Source: an uncultured Bacillota bacterium (GTDB lineage: Bacteria > Bacillota > Dethiobacteria > DTU022 > UBA8154). From it: DNA of 64,000 nucleotides. Below the pieces are notes generated by a model. That model did not search any database. It was given only the letters and a program-made list of their open reading frames with translations, and was not told the DNA's origin. The stretch is taken from NCBI GenBank assembly GCA_937973635.1, contig CALJJZ010000044.1, positions 72 through 64,071 of the forward strand. Reading direction: 5' to 3'. The position numbers and the translations under genes were made by a program. Shown here piece after piece: positions 3,102 through 14,638 of this stretch; within the stretch, counting starts at the first letter, position 1, and the number at the start of each line of letters is the position of its first letter.

Positions 3102-5075
3102 ATGTTTTTACAACTGCACAATATCCATAAAGCCTACGGCGCCAACCCTGTTTTGCGCGGCGTCTCCCTGCAGCTGCACCGCGGCGAGCGGGCGGGCCTG
3201 ATCGGAGTCAACGGCTCCGGCAAGAGCACGATCCTGAAAATCATCATGGGCGAAGAAACTGCCGATGGGGGGCAGCTCCGCCTCTCCCGGGAGGTTAAGG
3301 TGGGTTACTTGAGCCAGAAACCGGAGTTTACTAGCAAGGAGACGCTGCGCGCTTTTTTGGAGCAGGGGGCGGCGCCGTTACTTAAGCTACAAAAAGAGAT
3401 GGCCGCCCTGGAGCAGGAGATGGCCCGGGTGTCCCGGCAGGAGGGGAAGAATGCACCCCGGCTGGACCCCCTGGTAGAACGTTACGGGATACTGGCACAC
3501 CATTTTGAAGAGCAGGGAGGCTATGACCTGGAGCACCGCCTGCGGGTTGTGGCCAGGGGGCTGGGCTTTGACGAGGCGGACCTCGGCCGTTCCCTCGCCA
3601 CTTTCAGCGGCGGCGAGAAAACGCGGGCCCAGCTCGCAGCGCTGCTCTTGCAGGAACCGGAGCTGCTGCTCCTCGATGAGCCCACCAACAACCTGGATAC
3701 AGAGGCGGTGGAATGGCTGGAGAGCTACCTTTCCGCCTGGCGCGGCGCTCTTTTGGTGGTTTCCCACGACCGTTATTTTCTTGACCGGGTGGCCACTGAA
3801 GTGCTTCTGCTGGAGCAGGGCGTGGTCCGGGCCTACCGGGGGAATTACAGCGCCTTTCAGTCCCAGCGGCGCCTGGAGGAGGCAACTGCCCTGAAGGCAT
3901 ACCGCAAACAGCAGGCAGTCCTGGAAAAAGAGAGGGCTTTTATCCTTAACGCCGCTGCTGATGCCCGCACAAAGCGACAGGCCCGCAGCCGGGAAAAGCG
4001 TCTGGAAAAGCTGGAGCCGCTTCAGGGGGTTACCCGTGAGCGGGAAATTAAGATCAGGTTGGGTTTTGCCGGGCGCAGCGGCAAACTGGTGGTGAGCCTG
4101 GAAAATATCTCCAAAAAATACGGCCCCAGGCAGATTTTTGCCGACGTAAACCTGGAGATTCACTGGGGGGACCGGGTGGCGGTAGTGGGCCCCAACGGTG
4201 CGGGGAAAACCACCCTGCTGCGGGTGATTACAGGGGAAGAAGCCCCTACCACGGGGCGTTTGCGCGTGGGGCCTTCTGTGCGTATGGCCTACTTTGAGCA
4301 GGAACAAAAGGAGCTGGATCCCCACAGCACCCCCCTGGCTGTGATTATGAACGCTTCCTCCATGTCTGCGCCGGAAGCCAGAAATTACCTGGGGAGCTAC
4401 CTTTTTCAGGGGGAAGATGTATTTAAGAAAATCGGGAGCCTGAGCGGTGGCGAACTCAGCCGCCTTGCCCTGGCCAAAATGGGCCTGGTGGAGGGCAATT
4501 TTTTAATCATGGACGAACCTACAAACCACCTCGATTTCCAGGGCGTGGAAGAGCTGGAGACAACGCTGGCCGCTTATCCGGGGACCATACTCCTTGTCTC
4601 CCATGACCGCTATTTTATTTCCCGGACAGCGAACAAGATCCTAGAGCTGCAGGACGGCCGGGCGCGCCTCTTTGGCGGGAGCTACCGGGAGTACCGGGAG
4701 CTCAAAGAGAGGGGAAAGGCCCTCCGCCCCGCTGTTTCCCCTCTGTCGTCGTCCGGTGTGGAGGCGGACCGGGAAAAAGCTGACCGCCTGGCGCAGCGCC
4801 AGGCAGAGCAGGCAAAGCGGGCAGAGCTTATGGCGCAGCGTCGCCGCCGCCGGGAAGCGGAGCGGCAGCTGGCTGCCCTGGAAGAAGAAATCCACGGAAC
4901 GGAAGAGCGTATCGGGCTGCTGGAGCAACAGCTGGCAGATCCGGCCCTTTACAGCTGCTTTGCCCAAGCCCGTCCTGTCATGGACGAATTGCAGGCGCTG
5001 CGCGGGCAGCTGGAGAAGCTCTACAAGCAGTGGGAGGAGACGGCAGCCCTCTTGGAAGAGCTGCCGTCTCTTTAA
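3102..5075 (+). CDS. ABC-F family ATPase (Uup/EttA-like). Two ABC cassettes, no TMD, C-terminal coiled coil.
   Basis: Two Walker A motifs (GVNGSGKST, GPNGAGKTT), two LSGGE signatures, an inter-domain linker, and a Glu/Arg-rich C-terminal coiled coil. Confidence 0.9.
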   Translation: MFLQLHNIHKAYGANPVLRGVSLQLHRGERAGLIGVNGSGKSTILKIIMGEETADGGQLRLSREVKVGYLSQKPEFTSKETLRAFLEQGAAPLLKLQKEMAALEQEMARVSRQEGKNAPRLDPLVERYGILAHHFEEQGGYDLEHRLRVVARGLGFDEADLGRSLATFSGGEKTRAQLAALLLQEPELLLLDEPTNNLDTEAVEWLESYLSAWRGALLVVSHDRYFLDRVATEVLLLEQGVVRAYRGNYSAFQSQRRLEEATALKAYRKQQAVLEKERAFILNAAADARTKRQARSREKRLEKLEPLQGVTREREIKIRLGFAGRSGKLVVSLENISKKYGPRQIFADVNLEIHWGDRVAVVGPNGAGKTTLLRVITGEEAPTTGRLRVGPSVRMAYFEQEQKELDPHSTPLAVIMNASSMSAPEARNYLGSYLFQGEDVFKKIGSLSGGELSRLALAKMGLVEGNFLIMDEPTNHLDFQGVEELETTLAAYPGTILLVSHDRYFISRTANKILELQDGRARLFGGSYREYRELKERGKALRPAVSPLSSSGVEADREKADRLAQRQAEQAKRAELMAQRRRRREAERQLAALEEEIHGTEERIGLLEQQLADPALYSCFAQARPVMDELQALRGQLEKLYKQWEETAALLEELPSL

Positions 5076-9600: not shown

Positions 9601-10248
9601 ATGATTGAGCTTAAAAACTTGAGAAAAAGTTTTGAAGGGGAGCTTCTGCTGGATATCAGGGGTTTTACCTTTCAAAACGGGGTCAGCTATCTCTTTTTTG
9701 GCCCGTCCGGCTGCGGCAAGACCACACTATTAAACATCATTGCCGGCGTGATCCCGGCCGACTCCGGCCAGGTAATTGTTGACGGCTGTGATATAGGGGC
9801 ACTGAGCCCCGTAAAGCGTGATGCATACCGCCTGAGCACCGTAGGGTATGTCTTCCAGGAGTTTTACTTGCTGGAAAAGATGACTGTAGAAGACAATTTA
9901 AGGCTGCTGGAGCTCGAGCTGAAGCGGAAGGTCCCTGTGGACAGGACCCTTGAAGCCCTGGGCCTCGGCCCCAAAAAACATAAAAAGATAACGACCCTCT
10001 CCAGCGGCGAAAAGCAGCGGGTGGCCATTGCCCGGGCCCTAATTAAAGAGCCTGCGGTGCTGCTGGCCGATGAGCCCACGGGCAACCTGAACCCCAGGCT
10101 GGCCGGAGAGATCATGTCCTTGATCGCCGGCTGTGCGAGCAACCTCCATATCCCTGTGCTTGCAGTCTCCCACGATTATGGCATGAAGGGGTATTTCGAC
10201 GTGGCCCTGGAGATCTCTGAGCTGAACGGGGTGAACCTGCCATGCTGA
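9601..10248 (+). CDS. ABC transporter ATP-binding protein
   Basis: Walker A GPSGCGKTT, signature LSSGEKQRVAIARAL, Walker B LLADEPTGNLN. Its stop overlaps the next start. Confidence 0.9.
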   Translation: MIELKNLRKSFEGELLLDIRGFTFQNGVSYLFFGPSGCGKTTLLNIIAGVIPADSGQVIVDGCDIGALSPVKRDAYRLSTVGYVFQEFYLLEKMTVEDNLRLLELELKRKVPVDRTLEALGLGPKKHKKITTLSSGEKQRVAIARALIKEPAVLLADEPTGNLNPRLAGEIMSLIAGCASNLHIPVLAVSHDYGMKGYFDVALEISELNGVNLPC

Positions 10249-11537
10249 AACTGCTGAATTTTGCCCTGAAAAACCTGAGAACAAAACTGACCAGGGCAGT
10301 CCTTGCCTCCCTGGCCATTATCCTGTGCGCTACCATTGCCCTGGTCAGCTATAATACGGCCAAACAGGTACAGGACGGTGTCATCTCCACGGCAGGCTTT
10401 TACGATACCATTGTCGGCCCTGAAGGGAGCCCGCTCCAGCTTGCCCTGGCGACGATGTTTTTTGTGGAAAACCCCCTGGGCACAATCCCTTACGAGCACT
10501 ATGAAAAACTGCGCCACAACCCGGCAGTGCGGGAAATTTACCCCTTTGCCGCCGGTGATTTCTACCGCACCACGCGTATTATCGGGACCGTGCCCGCCTA
10601 TCTGCAGCGCTATGAACTGCAAGAAGGGCGGATCTTTGCCCAGCCTGGTGAAGCCGTCATCGGTTACCAGGTCGCCCGGTCAGGCATTTTGCGCCTTGAT
10701 GATGTCTTTGTGGGCGCCCATGGCTTTGCCGTCAACGGGCATATACACGATGATTTTGAGTACCGTGTGGTGGGCGTGCTGGCTAAAAGCAGGACGGCTG
10801 CGGATAATGTCATCTTTACCCCCATTGAGAGCGTCTGGCTTGTGCATGCTGACCATGACCATGAACATGCTGACCATGACCATGAACATGGGCATGAAGA
10901 TACTCACGACTACGTACACGGCCAGCCGGAAGGGGGCTCCGGCGAGGGCTCCAGCCGGCAAGACGGAGATATGCACGGGCAGGAAGCCGGAGAGCTAAAG
11001 GGGGACCTTGTCTCCATTATGCTCAGGACAGAAAGCCTTGCCGCACACGCACGGCTTGTGGCTGCATACAGGGAGATCCCCGGAGTCCAGGCCATTAATC
11101 CGGCTTCTGTTTTAAGGGAGCTGCTCGTCAACCTTACCCTCGGCCGGGACATTCTGTATGCGCTGGCGGCAATAATCATGTTTATGGCGGCAATAGTCAT
11201 CTATGTTACCACCGCCTCCTTTGTTGAAGACAGCAAGAAAGATCTCTTAATCATGCGCCTGGTGGGCATTAAGCGGAAAACTATCGTCCCCCTCTTTGTC
11301 CTCCAGACTGTTTTCCTTGCCGCTGTAAGTATGGCTGTCTCTTTTTTCTTGAGTTTCCTTGCCCTTTTGCTGATCAACAGGTTTACGGCGGCAAATTTTG
11401 GCCTGGTGATCGACGGTGCAAAACGTTACCCCGCCGAAATGCTGATTTTGCTCGTTATCTTTGTCATTATTGTCGTCTCCTCCCTTGTTTCCATCTTCCC
11501 GGTTTACCGGCATGACCCACTGGAGGGGAGATCATGA
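10242..11537 (+). CDS. FtsX/MacB-like ABC permease with a His-rich extracytoplasmic insert
   Basis: N-terminal TM, large periplasmic domain, and three C-terminal TMs in the FtsX fold. The insert reads HADHDHEHADHDHEHGHEDTHDYVHGQ and is encoded by an exact 21-nt tandem duplication. Confidence 0.8.
   Translation: MLKLLNFALKNLRTKLTRAVLASLAIILCATIALVSYNTAKQVQDGVISTAGFYDTIVGPEGSPLQLALATMFFVENPLGTIPYEHYEKLRHNPAVREIYPFAAGDFYRTTRIIGTVPAYLQRYELQEGRIFAQPGEAVIGYQVARSGILRLDDVFVGAHGFAVNGHIHDDFEYRVVGVLAKSRTAADNVIFTPIESVWLVHADHDHEHADHDHEHGHEDTHDYVHGQPEGGSGEGSSRQDGDMHGQEAGELKGDLVSIMLRTESLAAHARLVAAYREIPGVQAINPASVLRELLVNLTLGRDILYALAAIIMFMAAIVIYVTTASFVEDSKKDLLIMRLVGIKRKTIVPLFVLQTVFLAAVSMAVSFFLSFLALLLINRFTAANFGLVIDGAKRYPAEMLILLVIFVIIVVSSLVSIFPVYRHDPLEGRS
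10848..10889 (+). repeat. Exact 2 x 21-nt tandem duplication (gctgaccatgaccatgaacat) encoding ADHDHEH x2 inside the permease gene
   Basis: Direct reading of the sequence. Confidence 0.9.
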
Positions 11538-12355: not shown

Positions 12356-12372
12356 AAAATTCTGAAAAAATA

Positions 12373-12392
12373 GGGACACAATGAAAATTATT
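12373..12392 (+). repeat. REP-like repeat copy 1 (GGGACACAATGAAAATTATT)
   Basis: Identical core to the copy at 12443-12462. Confidence 0.7.
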
Positions 12393-12437
12393 AAAAACAT
12401 TATCAAGTTTTTTGCAAAGCGGACATAAAAATTTTAA

Positions 12438-12462
12438 ATTTCGGGACACAATGAAAATTATT
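12438..12462 (+). repeat. REP-like repeat copy 2 (AATTTCGGGACACAATGAAAATTATT)
   Basis: Direct sequence identity. Confidence 0.7.
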
Positions 12463-12495
12463 GACCATAAATGGTTTTGATTTTATAATGAATGC

Positions 12496-13164
12496 ATGCC
12501 AAGGATAGCCAGAGTTGTTGTTCCGGGAATCCCCCATCACATCACACAGCGTGGAAACCGGCGTCTCCCCACTTTTTTCTGCGACAATGATTACAAGCGT
12601 TATCTGCAGATTATGGCGGAGCAATGCAAAAAATGGGGTGTTAAGATCTGGGCATACTGTCTTATGCCCAATCATGTGCATCTCATTGCTGTGCCTGCTA
12701 CAGAAGAAGCCCTGGCCGCTGCAGTCGGCGAAGCGCACCGCCGTTATACCTGGCTGATAAATAACCGGGAAAAATGGAGCGGCTTTTTATGGCAGGGTCG
12801 TTTTGCCTCATGCCCGCTGGATGAAGCTCATTTATACCTTGCAGCCCGTTACATTGAACTTAATCCTGTCCGTGCTGGCCTGGTAAAACATGCCCGGGAT
12901 TATCGCTGGAGCAGTGCGGCGGCACATTTTGCCGGGCGTGATGATATCCTGGTGGAGGTGGCGCCTCTAATAAACATGTTTGGGGATTGGGAGAAATACC
13001 TAGGGATTGATATTGCCGAGGAAGAATCAAAAAAGATTAAACGCCATGTGCAAAGCGGTGTCCCTTTGGGAGACGAAAAATTTGTATCTGACCTTGAGGA
13101 AAGGTTTGGCCTGAAATTCAGGCCGCAAAGGAGAGGCCCCAAAGGTTCCTGGAAACACAAATAA
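12496..13164 (+). CDS. REP-associated tyrosine transposase RayT (IS200/IS605-like Y1 HuH transposase, COG1943)
   Basis: HHITQRGNRR near the N-terminus, HuH motif PNHVHLIA, and catalytic Tyr region RYIELNPVRAGLV...YRWSS. The 222-aa length fits RAYT. Confidence 0.8.
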   Translation: MPRIARVVVPGIPHHITQRGNRRLPTFFCDNDYKRYLQIMAEQCKKWGVKIWAYCLMPNHVHLIAVPATEEALAAAVGEAHRRYTWLINNREKWSGFLWQGRFASCPLDEAHLYLAARYIELNPVRAGLVKHARDYRWSSAAAHFAGRDDILVEVAPLINMFGDWEKYLGIDIAEEESKKIKRHVQSGVPLGDEKFVSDLEERFGLKFRPQRRGPKGSWKHK

Positions 13165-13207
13165 CCTTCCTCAGCTTAACCCTGGTTTTCTGCACGGCAT
13201 AATAGGC

Positions 13208-13263
13208 ATAATTATCATTGTGTCCCGAAATTTTAGAAAATTTCGGGACACAATGATAATTAT
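13208..13263. repeat. Perfect palindromic REP pair (ATAATTATCATTGTGTCCCGAAATTTT-aga-AAAATTTCGGGACACAATGATAATTAT)
   Basis: About 26-nt arms with a 3-nt loop, forming a long hairpin. Confidence 0.85.
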
Positions 13264-13304
13264 TAATTATACAGAGGCTTGATAGGACAGGAGGTGGTGG
13301 GTAT

Positions 13305-14015
13305 ATGCGTGTGTGGGATATTCATCCCGGCTACCTTTCGCGGGAAAGCCTGCTGGGACAGCATGTGGAAATCCATAGCGTTTTCAGCGTGATAACGGGG
13401 CACAAAAAAGGCTATGCCCGCCACCCCGAAACATTGCGCTGGCGCAGCAACCTGCCGGAGCTGAAAAAGGTCCACGACCTGACAGTAAGGGAGATGATCC
13501 TGCGCGGTTACGGGCACCGCTCACCTCTACCCGCACCGGCAGAGGACGAAGGGACAGAAGCAAAGAGGCTAGACTGGGTTGATCCGCCCCATACCCAGTT
13601 TGGGCTCCTGGAGGCCAAATATGCCGCTGCCCGGCGGGAGGGCCGTATCCCCCTGCCCCGCTACAGCTCCCAGTTCTGGGCCCACCACAAGTACGCCGTC
13701 ATGGGCCGGGGGTACAATTTTTACAGGGAGATCCAGGCGTACATGGGAAGGGGAAAGGACCTGCCCATCGGGCAGAACGAGGGGCTGGTGCTCCGTGTTT
13801 TGGAGCTGCTCTGTGCCCCCTTAGACAGACGGGGGCTGAGGAATACCCTGGAGCACCTGTGGGGTTATTTTAAAGAGAAGGCCGGCGCAGCGGAAAAGGA
13901 AATGTTCCAGGCAAACCTGGCTGCAGATCCTTTTTCGCTGCTGTCCTTTCTTTACAGCCTGGCCTGCAAGTACGATGTTGTGTACCTCCGTCATTCCACC
14001 ATTTTCAGCGATTAA
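13305..14015 (+). CDS. Pyrimidine-dimer DNA glycosylase-like protein (T4 endonuclease V / Pyr_excise family) with C-terminal extension
   Basis: The N-terminus MRVWDIHPGYLSRESLLGQHVEIHSVFSVITGHKKGYARHPETLRW matches the bacterial DenV-like pattern as I recall it (MR.WD.HP..L....LLGEHRELH...KKGY.RHPE..RW). Confidence 0.45.
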   Translation: MRVWDIHPGYLSRESLLGQHVEIHSVFSVITGHKKGYARHPETLRWRSNLPELKKVHDLTVREMILRGYGHRSPLPAPAEDEGTEAKRLDWVDPPHTQFGLLEAKYAAARREGRIPLPRYSSQFWAHHKYAVMGRGYNFYREIQAYMGRGKDLPIGQNEGLVLRVLELLCAPLDRRGLRNTLEHLWGYFKEKAGAAEKEMFQANLAADPFSLLSFLYSLACKYDVVYLRHSTIFSD

Positions 14016-14120
14016 TTTTAGTAAAAGATAAAAGGTGGGCCTGTGAGCCTGCCGATTATAAAACAGGGGCAGATCCGTAACTTCTTTATAAAGAACTACT
14101 ATAGCTTCATGCCAAATATA

Positions 14121-14147
14121 ATAATTTTTATTGTGTCCCGAAATTTT
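14121..14147 (-). repeat. REP-like repeat copy in inverse orientation (ATAATTTTTATTGTGTCCCGAAATTTT)
   Basis: Reverse complement of the core. It lies exactly at the 5' truncation point of the IS256 fragment. Confidence 0.7.
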
Positions 14148-14151
14148 CAGG

Positions 14152-14487
14152 GCGATGAACAGCTTCGAAGATGACCTTGAAGCCTCGCTCGCTCACCTCT
14201 ATCTGCCGGCGGTGCACCGTAAATATTTGCGCACCACCAATCTAATCGAGCGCAGCTTAGGCGAACAGAGAAGACGCAGCAAGGTGACCCCTCGCTTCTT
14301 CGATGAAAAGAGTGCGCTCAAACTTGCCTTCGCTACACTTTGGCGAACCAGCCTCAAGCGGCAAAAGGTCAGGTTTTCAGAGATCGAACAGAAACAGGTT
14401 TTTGAGTTGCGTAAAAAGCTGGGTTTGATTCCCAAACAGACAGATATGAATGACGAAAATCAAGAGAAAGATGGTAATGCCGCTTGA
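14152..14487 (+). pseudogene. IS256-family (mutator-type) transposase, C-terminal fragment only
   Basis: LYLPAVHRKYLRTTNLIERSLGEQRRRSKV...ALKLAFATL matches the C-terminal approximately 110 aa of IS256 transposases. The catalytic DDE region is absent, and the fragment begins right after a REP copy. Confidence 0.6.
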
Positions 14488-14638
14488 ACCAGGCCGAGCT
14501 TTTTTACAGACAAAATTGGACTTGACCTCGGCTTCTTTCTCATTTTTTTCTCAGAAATCATTTTCCATACTTTAAGCTTAATATAACCGATAATCGCTGC
14601 AGCTATAGCAATTAACACCCACCAGTACCATTCCATTT

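Follow-up and report, generated by a model that had tools for sequence, protein, structure and literature searches.

The closest described relatives of the locus reported here are the TIRYTs, genes that resemble those of the tyrosine transposases associated with repetitive extragenic palindromes (REPs), known as RAYTs, but that are described as having long terminal inverted repeats (TIRs), rather than REPs, on both sides; in the account given of these repeats, many share the sequence GGGGWSAS, and some families are moderately abundant, with copies that are single, dimeric or grouped (PMC3733652). Where the literature on TIRYTs treats their C-terminal domain, it is described as resembling a helix-turn-helix (HTH; Bac_DnaA_C, HTH_23 or HTH_28). 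In the sections of Quentin et al. 2018 that classify these genes (PMC6006769), the TIRYTs described by Di Nocera et al. 2013 are equated with subclass 2.1 of the Y1/HUH superfamily and with the group 1 RAYTs of Bertels (PMC5581495). Subclass 2.1 is presented there as the second largest branch of the superfamily, present in about 15% of strains, with no REP-like sequences or repeats found beside its genes, and Table 1 of that survey gives its signatures as NHVH, W[EQ], YIELNP and SS in the proximal tail of a protein of ~238 aa (PMC6006769). Here we analyse 64,000 nt of DNA from an uncultured Bacillota bacterium (contig CALJJZ010000044.1, positions 72 to 64,071; hereafter the window) that contains, between two convergent ATP-binding cassette (ABC) transporter operons, an island which is probably a TIRtron, that is, a subclass 2.1 Y1/HUH transposase gene bounded by its cognate 28–29-nt TIRs, with extra TIR copies around it. 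We know of no demonstrated activity for subclass 2.1.

The island had initially been annotated as a RAYT gene among REP hairpins, and the assignment of the gene to a RAYT-type Y1 transposase is supported by both its Pfam match and its class motifs. The gene (12496..13164, + strand) encodes a protein of 222 aa that matches Pfam Y1_Tnp (E = 8.7e-14), and the segments PNHVHLI, LWQGRF, RYIELNPV and RWSSAAAH correspond to the NHVH, WQ, YIELNP and SS motifs of subclass 2.1 and not to the signatures of the REP-associated subclasses. On these motifs, the protein is a member of subclass 2.1 (TIRYT, or Bertels group 1), within a wider Y1 family of 7998 proteins (E ≤ 1e-10) that are about 60% identical across phyla; the search retrieved more than 8000 relatives. 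Upstream lies a predicted sigma-70-type promoter (TTGACC-17-TATAAT, 12461..12489, +; 11 of 12 consensus matches), the -35 box of which overlaps the inner end of a TIR; TTGAC and TATAAT are both kept in four related loci (L021, L018, L062 and L066). A canonical REP/RAYT system, in which a domesticated RAYT would recognise the repeats as REP hairpins in the form of single-stranded stem-loops, would agree with the class 2 motif Y---NP, with the single match of a PDB sequence search, E. coli TnpA-REP (4ER8, E = 0.002), and with REP_Tyr_transpos as the best NCBIfam model. However, the score against that model is 70.9 bits, below the equivalog cutoff of 80, and the motifs are those of the very subclass for which Quentin et al. 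report no REP-like sequences in their description of it (PMC6006769).

The 23-nt repeat core was searched for on both strands of the whole window with up to 3 mismatches allowed, and five copies were recovered, all within 12369–14143, in agreement with the five initially annotated in this 2-kb region; 100 dinucleotide-preserving shuffles gave 0 matches. The two direct copies expected 5′ of the transposase gene were found at core positions 12369–12391 and 12439–12461, both on the + strand. Copy 1 (unit 12366..12393) has 3 mismatches and a degenerate outer end (AAATAGGGACAC...), and lies in tandem with copy 2, 70 nt outside it, an arrangement that is common in the repeat family (L016, L025, L041 and L062). 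Copy 2 (unit 12436..12463, 0 mismatches) is the left TIR of the Y1 unit, given that conservation with L021 and L018 begins there and that the outer flanks are unrelated. Copy 3 (13208..13234, core 13208–13230, − strand; 0 mismatches) is the right TIR, and the gene is flanked by inverted arms of 26–27 nt at 12436–12462 and 13208–13234. Copy 3 is also the left arm of a perfect 56-nt palindrome, likewise recognised at the outset, whose right arm is copy 4 (13237..13263, core 13241–13263, +; 0 mismatches): the two 27-nt arms, 13208–13234 and 13237–13263, are 100% complementary, are separated by a 2-nt gap, and fold as single-stranded DNA at −26.3 kcal/mol (z = −12.5). Rfam returned only sub-threshold miRNA-precursor-like matches on the palindrome, which we discarded as an artefact of any long hairpin. 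Copy 5 (14120..14147, core 14121–14143, −; 1 mismatch) is fused at its outer edge to the remnant of an IS256-family insertion sequence (IS), and copies 4 and 5 form the left and right brackets of a glycosylase-like gene.

When one genome per species was scanned, the pattern TTCGGGACACAATRAWAATTAT turned up in 54 stretches in about 26 assemblies, nearly all of them metagenome-assembled genomes (MAGs) of Syntrophomonadaceae, Dethiobacter or unclassified Bacillota from soda-lake sediments, and related MAGs hold 1–12 contigs each with exact-pattern matches. Viral contigs gave no TIR match. TIRs and Y1 remnants also occur on three contigs from the same soda-lake samples binned as Halobacteroidaceae, Spirochaetaceae and Pacearchaeota (L019, L028 and L032); these contigs are probably mis-binned, and would otherwise be evidence of horizontal spread. 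A relaxed search yielded 95 instances, which form the basis of a position matrix and a covariation count. The repeat unit defined by this matrix is 28–29 nt long, (A/G)A(A/T)AATTTCGGGACACAATGAAAATTAT(T), and sharply bounded, with conservation above 90% at most of the 25 core positions (80–100% overall) and at background level beyond both edges. The TIR core cGGGACAC, read as CGGGACAC, fits GGGGWSAS at 7 of 8 positions. The initial annotation had proposed a dispersed repeat family cognate to the Y1 gene, and its distribution agrees with this, as does the recurrence of gene and repeat together in unrelated contexts.

The description of these repeats as REP hairpins, by comparison, finds no support from folding or from the covariation count, and we abandoned it. 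One unit on its own has a folding energy of −2.2 kcal/mol (z −1.8 to −2.1, about −2), carries no GT[AG]G tag, and shows no covariation supporting pairing in its stem across the 95 instances; the lone variable stem pair, −1/+23, in fact runs against pairing (T:T 14, A:T 3; Fisher p = 0.007). Because of the weak fold, the anti-pairing variation and the missing tag, the units are not REP hairpins in the accepted sense. The repeat acts as the TIR of the Y1 unit.

The Y1 unit spans ~800 bp and consists of a TIR, a promoter overlapping this TIR, the Y1 gene, a spacer of ~45 nt, and an inverted TIR. When the window is aligned with L021 (77% amino acid identity) and L018 (72%), similarity runs from one TIR to the other, the outer flanks being unrelated. 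The TIRs are nearly invariant, although column identity in the gene has dropped to ~79%. This layout, including TTGACx-17-TATAAT, recurs in L062, L063, L012, L065 and L066, and in the first of these, a Dethiobacter MAG, the unit lies between housekeeping genes. Units with unrelated outer flanks are found in at least six other assemblies. A metagenome scan with the Y1 protein recovered 5 loci only, with TIR variants but no cargo example among them. Repeat and protein co-vary, since relatives with 64% and 68% identical Y1 proteins (L064 and L068) are flanked by diverged repeats containing GGGGACAC, and a 54% identical relative (L067) is flanked by true palindromic hairpins (3780–3880 and 4390–4470; GCCAGACACTTAC...GTAAGTGTCTGGC). 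The arm of the L067 hairpin resembles the GGGACAC core of the TIR; together, these sequences hint that the TIRs and the REP-like hairpins of this Y1 clade are related. The hairpins of this more distant relative, along with the inverted copies of a dispersed repeat that flank the gene in the window, are points in favour of a canonical REP/RAYT system, but given the properties of the repeat units and of the protein described above we consider such a system very unlikely here.

TIRs also bound decayed forms of the unit. Inverted TIR pairs 180–300 nt apart enclose Y1 residues ~1–59 and ~180–222 without the catalytic core (L010, L024, L026, L030, L036, L044, L045, L051 and others), and, as judged from these N- and C-terminal remnants, they are internally deleted derivatives of the Y1 unit that resemble miniature inverted-repeat transposable elements (MITEs). 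Minimal tail-to-tail dimers, tandem copies and solo copies of the TIR occur too; the deleted derivatives and solo copies are spread over about 25 soda-lake Syntrophomonadaceae/Dethiobacter MAGs. Similarity among inner flanks is shared by 50 of the 95 instances, although part of this clustering may stem from the partner TIR inside the 250-nt flank, and outer flanks are almost all unique. In addition, a TIR lies within 250 nt of a contig end in 18 of 54 loci, versus ~9% expected, an enrichment of the kind that multi-copy elements cause when assemblies break at them. Partial repeats in tandem, covering the TIR's outer 8–16 nt (ATAATTTCG... and then a new start, as in ATAATTTCG followed directly by ATAATTTCGGGACAC...) stand just outside 22 of 92 instances, versus 3 of 92 on the inner side, and are found at both ends of some Y1 units as well as in the diverged L064 family. 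They are present in L001, L003, L012, L019, L025, L032, L036, L038, L041, L062 (4700–4800), L063 (580–630 and 1400–1450) and L065, and at 12425–12440 of the window. These partial copies may be the mark of a cleavage and rejoining site, or of insertion targeted to TIR termini, which would also account for the abutted TIR pair in the window.

Within one MAG, L011 (1–216) and L037 (1–216) are the same, but for 1 nt, over the TIR and 192 nt of its outer flank, and are wholly diverged on the inner side of the TIR, where one has a TetR-ABC operon and the other a Y1 remnant and a PIN-domain/antitoxin-like gene pair; this divergence may represent a rearrangement or a strain polymorphism at the TIR edge. 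A breakpoint at a TIR edge, second to that of the IS256 remnant in the window, lies at an orthologous site between related MAGs (L020 97–1452 and L040 1–1040 versus L011 4532–4845). Here, in L020 and L040, a TIR and an inverted TIR enclose a CMAS-like S-adenosylmethionine-dependent methyltransferase gene (346 aa), while L011 lacks this gene and has a 184-nt segment that includes a remnant of the 3′ end of the Y1 gene, plus a single TIR. The CMAS-like gene is a second unrelated gene bracketed by TIRs. In L020, what looked like an alpha/beta-hydrolase fragment interrupted by a TIR had no Pfam match, and the claim was dropped.

These patterns also bear on the idea that the repeats are host regulatory sites, immobile operator, promoter or terminator modules governing the two genes of the island. 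Such a role would fit the overlap of the left TIR with the -35 box of a near-consensus promoter, the terminator-like score of the palindrome and the T-rich run that follows it, and a weak promoter-like site in TIR copy 4, 5′ of the glycosylase-like gene (TTTAGA-17-GATAAT). However, the 28-nt unit has unrelated genes or contig ends as its neighbours in about 25 assemblies, bounds decayed Y1 gene fragments, and is fused to a truncated IS gene; for these reasons the repeat is better described as mobile than as part of a regulon, and we regard a purely regulatory origin as highly improbable.

Several observations weigh against a mobile TIRtron. The core was found nowhere else in the 64 kb at ≤3 mismatches, and the window's own genome lies outside the collection that was scanned. 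No consistent direct repeat indicative of target-site duplication surrounds the 14 elements inspected, and no empty insertion site was recovered, so that transposition is inferred from comparative patterns only. The comparative data themselves come mostly from fragmented MAGs, some of them probably mis-binned. The C-terminal tail of the Y1 protein (residues 141–222), although present and conserved among relatives, has no Pfam HTH match at E ≤ 10. Finally, the bracketing of a gene by TIRs and the 2-nt abutment of two TIRs could also reflect a true cargo element, as discussed below.

The IS256-family sequence beyond copy 5 provides evidence for rearrangement at a TIR edge. The open reading frame (ORF) at 14131–14487 (+) matches only positions 306–369 of 379 in the Transposase_mut profile and 271–333 of 338 in transpos_IS256. 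As only the profile ends match, ~300 N-terminal residues of the transposase are missing, confirming the truncation that had been noticed at the last repeat copy. Comparison with profiles and homologs delimits a transposase 3′ remnant of about the last 110 codons at 14149..14487 (+); the IS256-like element then closes at 14488..14527 (+) with its right end, which contains a terminal inverted repeat (...TTTTTACAGACAAAATTGGACTTGACC). Two independent IS copies, L070 (89%) and L071, are similar exactly as far as 14527, which defines where the IS ends on the right, and similarity to the longer copy, L071, begins at ~14144–14149, the outer edge of TIR copy 5, while protein relatives of the remnant reach further N-terminal. 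The element is therefore incomplete, with its right end kept and its left part absent. As none of the TIRs in the window has the missing 5′ two-thirds beyond it, the structure points to a deletion or other rearrangement that had one endpoint at the TIR edge and followed IS insertion. A 5–6-nt microhomology at the junction, ATTTTC, is possible, but tentative, as it is judged from a copy only 78% identical. A recurrent association of TIRs with IS256 elements, suspected from two IS256 homologs on contigs equal in length to those of two TIR loci, was rejected because tblastn found no IS256 sequence in any TIR locus. On the opposite strand, an ORF for a small membrane protein of 58 aa (14460–14636, −) takes its C-terminal ~23 codons from the right end of the IS256-like element, so that IS insertion altered the 3′ end of this gene.

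Between TIR copies 4 and 5 lies the glycosylase-like gene that had been predicted between the last two repeat sites (13305..14015, +). Its 236-aa product, related to T4 endonuclease V (DenV), contains a Pyr_excise domain (PF03013) at residues 1–74 (E = 1.4e-22; 80.3 bits against a gathering score of 23) and a DUF1722 domain at residues 129–235 (E = 1.5e-8), and the PF03013 match bears out the proposed family. Arg2 and Glu22 are invariant in an alignment of 30 homologs. In fold searches with an AlphaFold model (pLDDT 92), the best PDB match was T4 endonuclease V (1ENI; probability 0.85, TMt 0.55), with a weak E-value of 1.4. Neither phmmer nor a 30-sequence family profile provided a sequence route to T4 endonuclease V in the PDB, and the family is therefore tied to this enzyme only by Pfam and fold search. 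The combination of Pyr_excise and DUF1722 is found in a two-domain family of at least 387 members, and from its domains the protein is a putative glycosylase belonging to a separate, widespread bacterial family. Its six closest homologs (L056–L061; 61–65% identity) are all encoded between smpB and rnr (RNase R), divergently from smpB, and none of the six has TIRs beside it; neither smpB nor rnr was found within the window.

A rival explanation is a cargo element. In this case, the TIR-glycosylase-TIR segment (13237–14147) would be a non-autonomous passenger cassette that inserted beside the TIRtron and into an IS256 copy, moved either by the Y1 transposase acting in trans or by one-ended read-through using the next TIR as a surrogate end. 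The gene sits between inverted TIRs whose outer-to-inner geometry is that seen in the Y1 unit and in the short derivatives of this unit, its left TIR lies only 2 nt from the right TIR of the unit, and its right TIR interrupts an IS. The different setting of the six homologs, and the CMAS-like gene bracketed in another MAG and absent from the orthologous site elsewhere, are consistent with cargo as well. However, no second copy of the cassette was found among at least 54 TIR loci, and the 90% protein cluster contains one sequence, with the next relative 64% identical. Local alignments of the cassette's inner flanks (41 nt and 105 nt) to those of Y1 units score no better than shuffles and thus reveal no Y1-unit remnants, whereas in a control Y1 flanks match each other in most comparisons. 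The GC content of the gene (59–62%) resembles the host's (54–57%), and differs from the 45–51% of the Y1 gene and IS remnant. Among TIR pairs at ~850 nt or more, inverted (+,−) pairs (3–4) are not enriched, being rarer than (−,+) pairs (12). Simple insertion also fails to explain the structure, in that the missing IS256 5′ part lies beyond no TIR. On balance, a cargo cassette is unlikely, and the initial suggestion that a repair gene had been captured or delivered remains conjecture on these grounds, with mobilisation of the gene being possible and its link to the TIRs suggestive.

A broader proposal holds that TIRYTs are active transposases whose TIR pairs mobilise arbitrary host genes, with TIR-glycosylase-TIR as a delivered passenger cassette. 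The abutted TIR-TIR palindrome would then betray either an insertion targeted to ends or the junction of a circle, and the tandem partial outer-TIR copies would mark the site of Y1 cleavage and rejoining. We consider this proposal quite unlikely.

We return to a TIRtron as the preferred explanation. Family membership, the limits of the unit, its dispersal, the deletion derivatives, the co-variation of TIR and protein and the point of IS truncation are seen directly in the sequences. The ~800-bp Y1 unit probably is, or formerly was, mobile in haloalkaliphilic Bacillota of the Syntrophomonadaceae/Dethiobacter lineage, and has given rise to the MITE-like deleted derivatives and to solo, tandem and dimer TIR copies. 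An extra TIR abutting the right TIR of the unit creates the 56-nt palindrome, and a further TIR 0.85 kb on leaves the host-like Pyr_excise/DUF1722 gene bracketed. An IS256-like element would have inserted earlier, and a rearrangement breaking at the last TIR's outer edge would then have removed its 5′ two-thirds. In the inferred mechanism, TIR edges are where the Y1 protein cuts and joins DNA, probably in single-stranded form and close to the TTTCG/GGG end, and TIR ends may attract further TIR insertions; the order of events is likewise a reconstruction. Elsewhere in the neighbourhood, an FtsX-like ABC permease encoded 5′ of the island (10242–11537, +) has a His/Asp-rich insert (HADHDHEHADHDHEHGHEDTHDYVHG) that may bind metal.

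This lineage offers a clean comparative case of subclass 2.1 genes in discrete TIR-bounded units, which shift between contexts, degenerate into MITE-like forms and give rise to breakpoints at the edges of their TIRs. As the 28-nt substrate is defined, TIR recognition and cleavage become directly testable.

Compared with known systems, the bracketed gene product resembles T4 endonuclease V in its N-terminal 74 residues, which match Pyr_excise, in the invariant Arg2 and Glu22, and in its top fold match, and resembles E. coli YbgA in its DUF1722 C-terminal half. Unlike T4 endonuclease V, it is a two-domain fusion, and it has no sequence-profile link to that enzyme in the PDB and a weak fold E-value. 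IS200/IS605 elements have subterminal hairpins in direct orientation, no TIRs, a Y---Q motif, a protein of ~150 aa and often tnpB. With these elements and their derivatives (PATEs and MITEs), the Y1 unit would share HUH/Y1 chemistry and shares the occurrence of autonomous units alongside internally deleted derivatives, but it differs in its YIELNP motif, in the presence of TIRs, and in its NCBIfam transpos_IS200 score (17.8 bits versus a cutoff of 55). With REP/RAYT and REPIN systems (Nunvar 2010; Bertels & Rainey 2011; TnpA-REP 4ER8), the island has in common a single Y1 gene, inverted short dispersed repeats, inverted doublets, and repeat-protein co-variation. Unlike those systems, its units are not hairpins and have no GTAG guide, copy numbers appear to be in the tens rather than hundreds, the protein scores under the REP_Tyr_transpos cutoff and belongs to a different subclass, and the doublets hold transposase-gene remnants.

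The likeness to TIRtrons, as these are portrayed in the relevant sections of the TIRYT literature (PMC3733652, PMC6006769, PMC5581495), extends to a Y1/HUH protein of ~220–240 aa whose motifs are NHVH, W[EQ] and YIELNP and whose C-terminal tail contains SS; to long, non-GTAG inverted repeats at fixed short distances from the gene; to a GGGGWSAS-like core (cGGGACAC here, GGGGACAC in L064 and L068); and to a moderately abundant TIR family with single, dimer and clustered copies. For the C-terminal tail, which is conserved among relatives, no Pfam HTH match was detected. Differences are the short derivatives that keep both ends of the Y1 gene, not described in the relevant sections of the two papers that mention TIRYTs, the tandem partial outer-TIR copies, and a TIR pair that brackets an unrelated gene. 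The class is thus a known, barely studied one, to which the present locus adds a new host lineage, soda-lake Bacillota of the Syntrophomonadaceae/Dethiobacter type, and a new TIR sequence.

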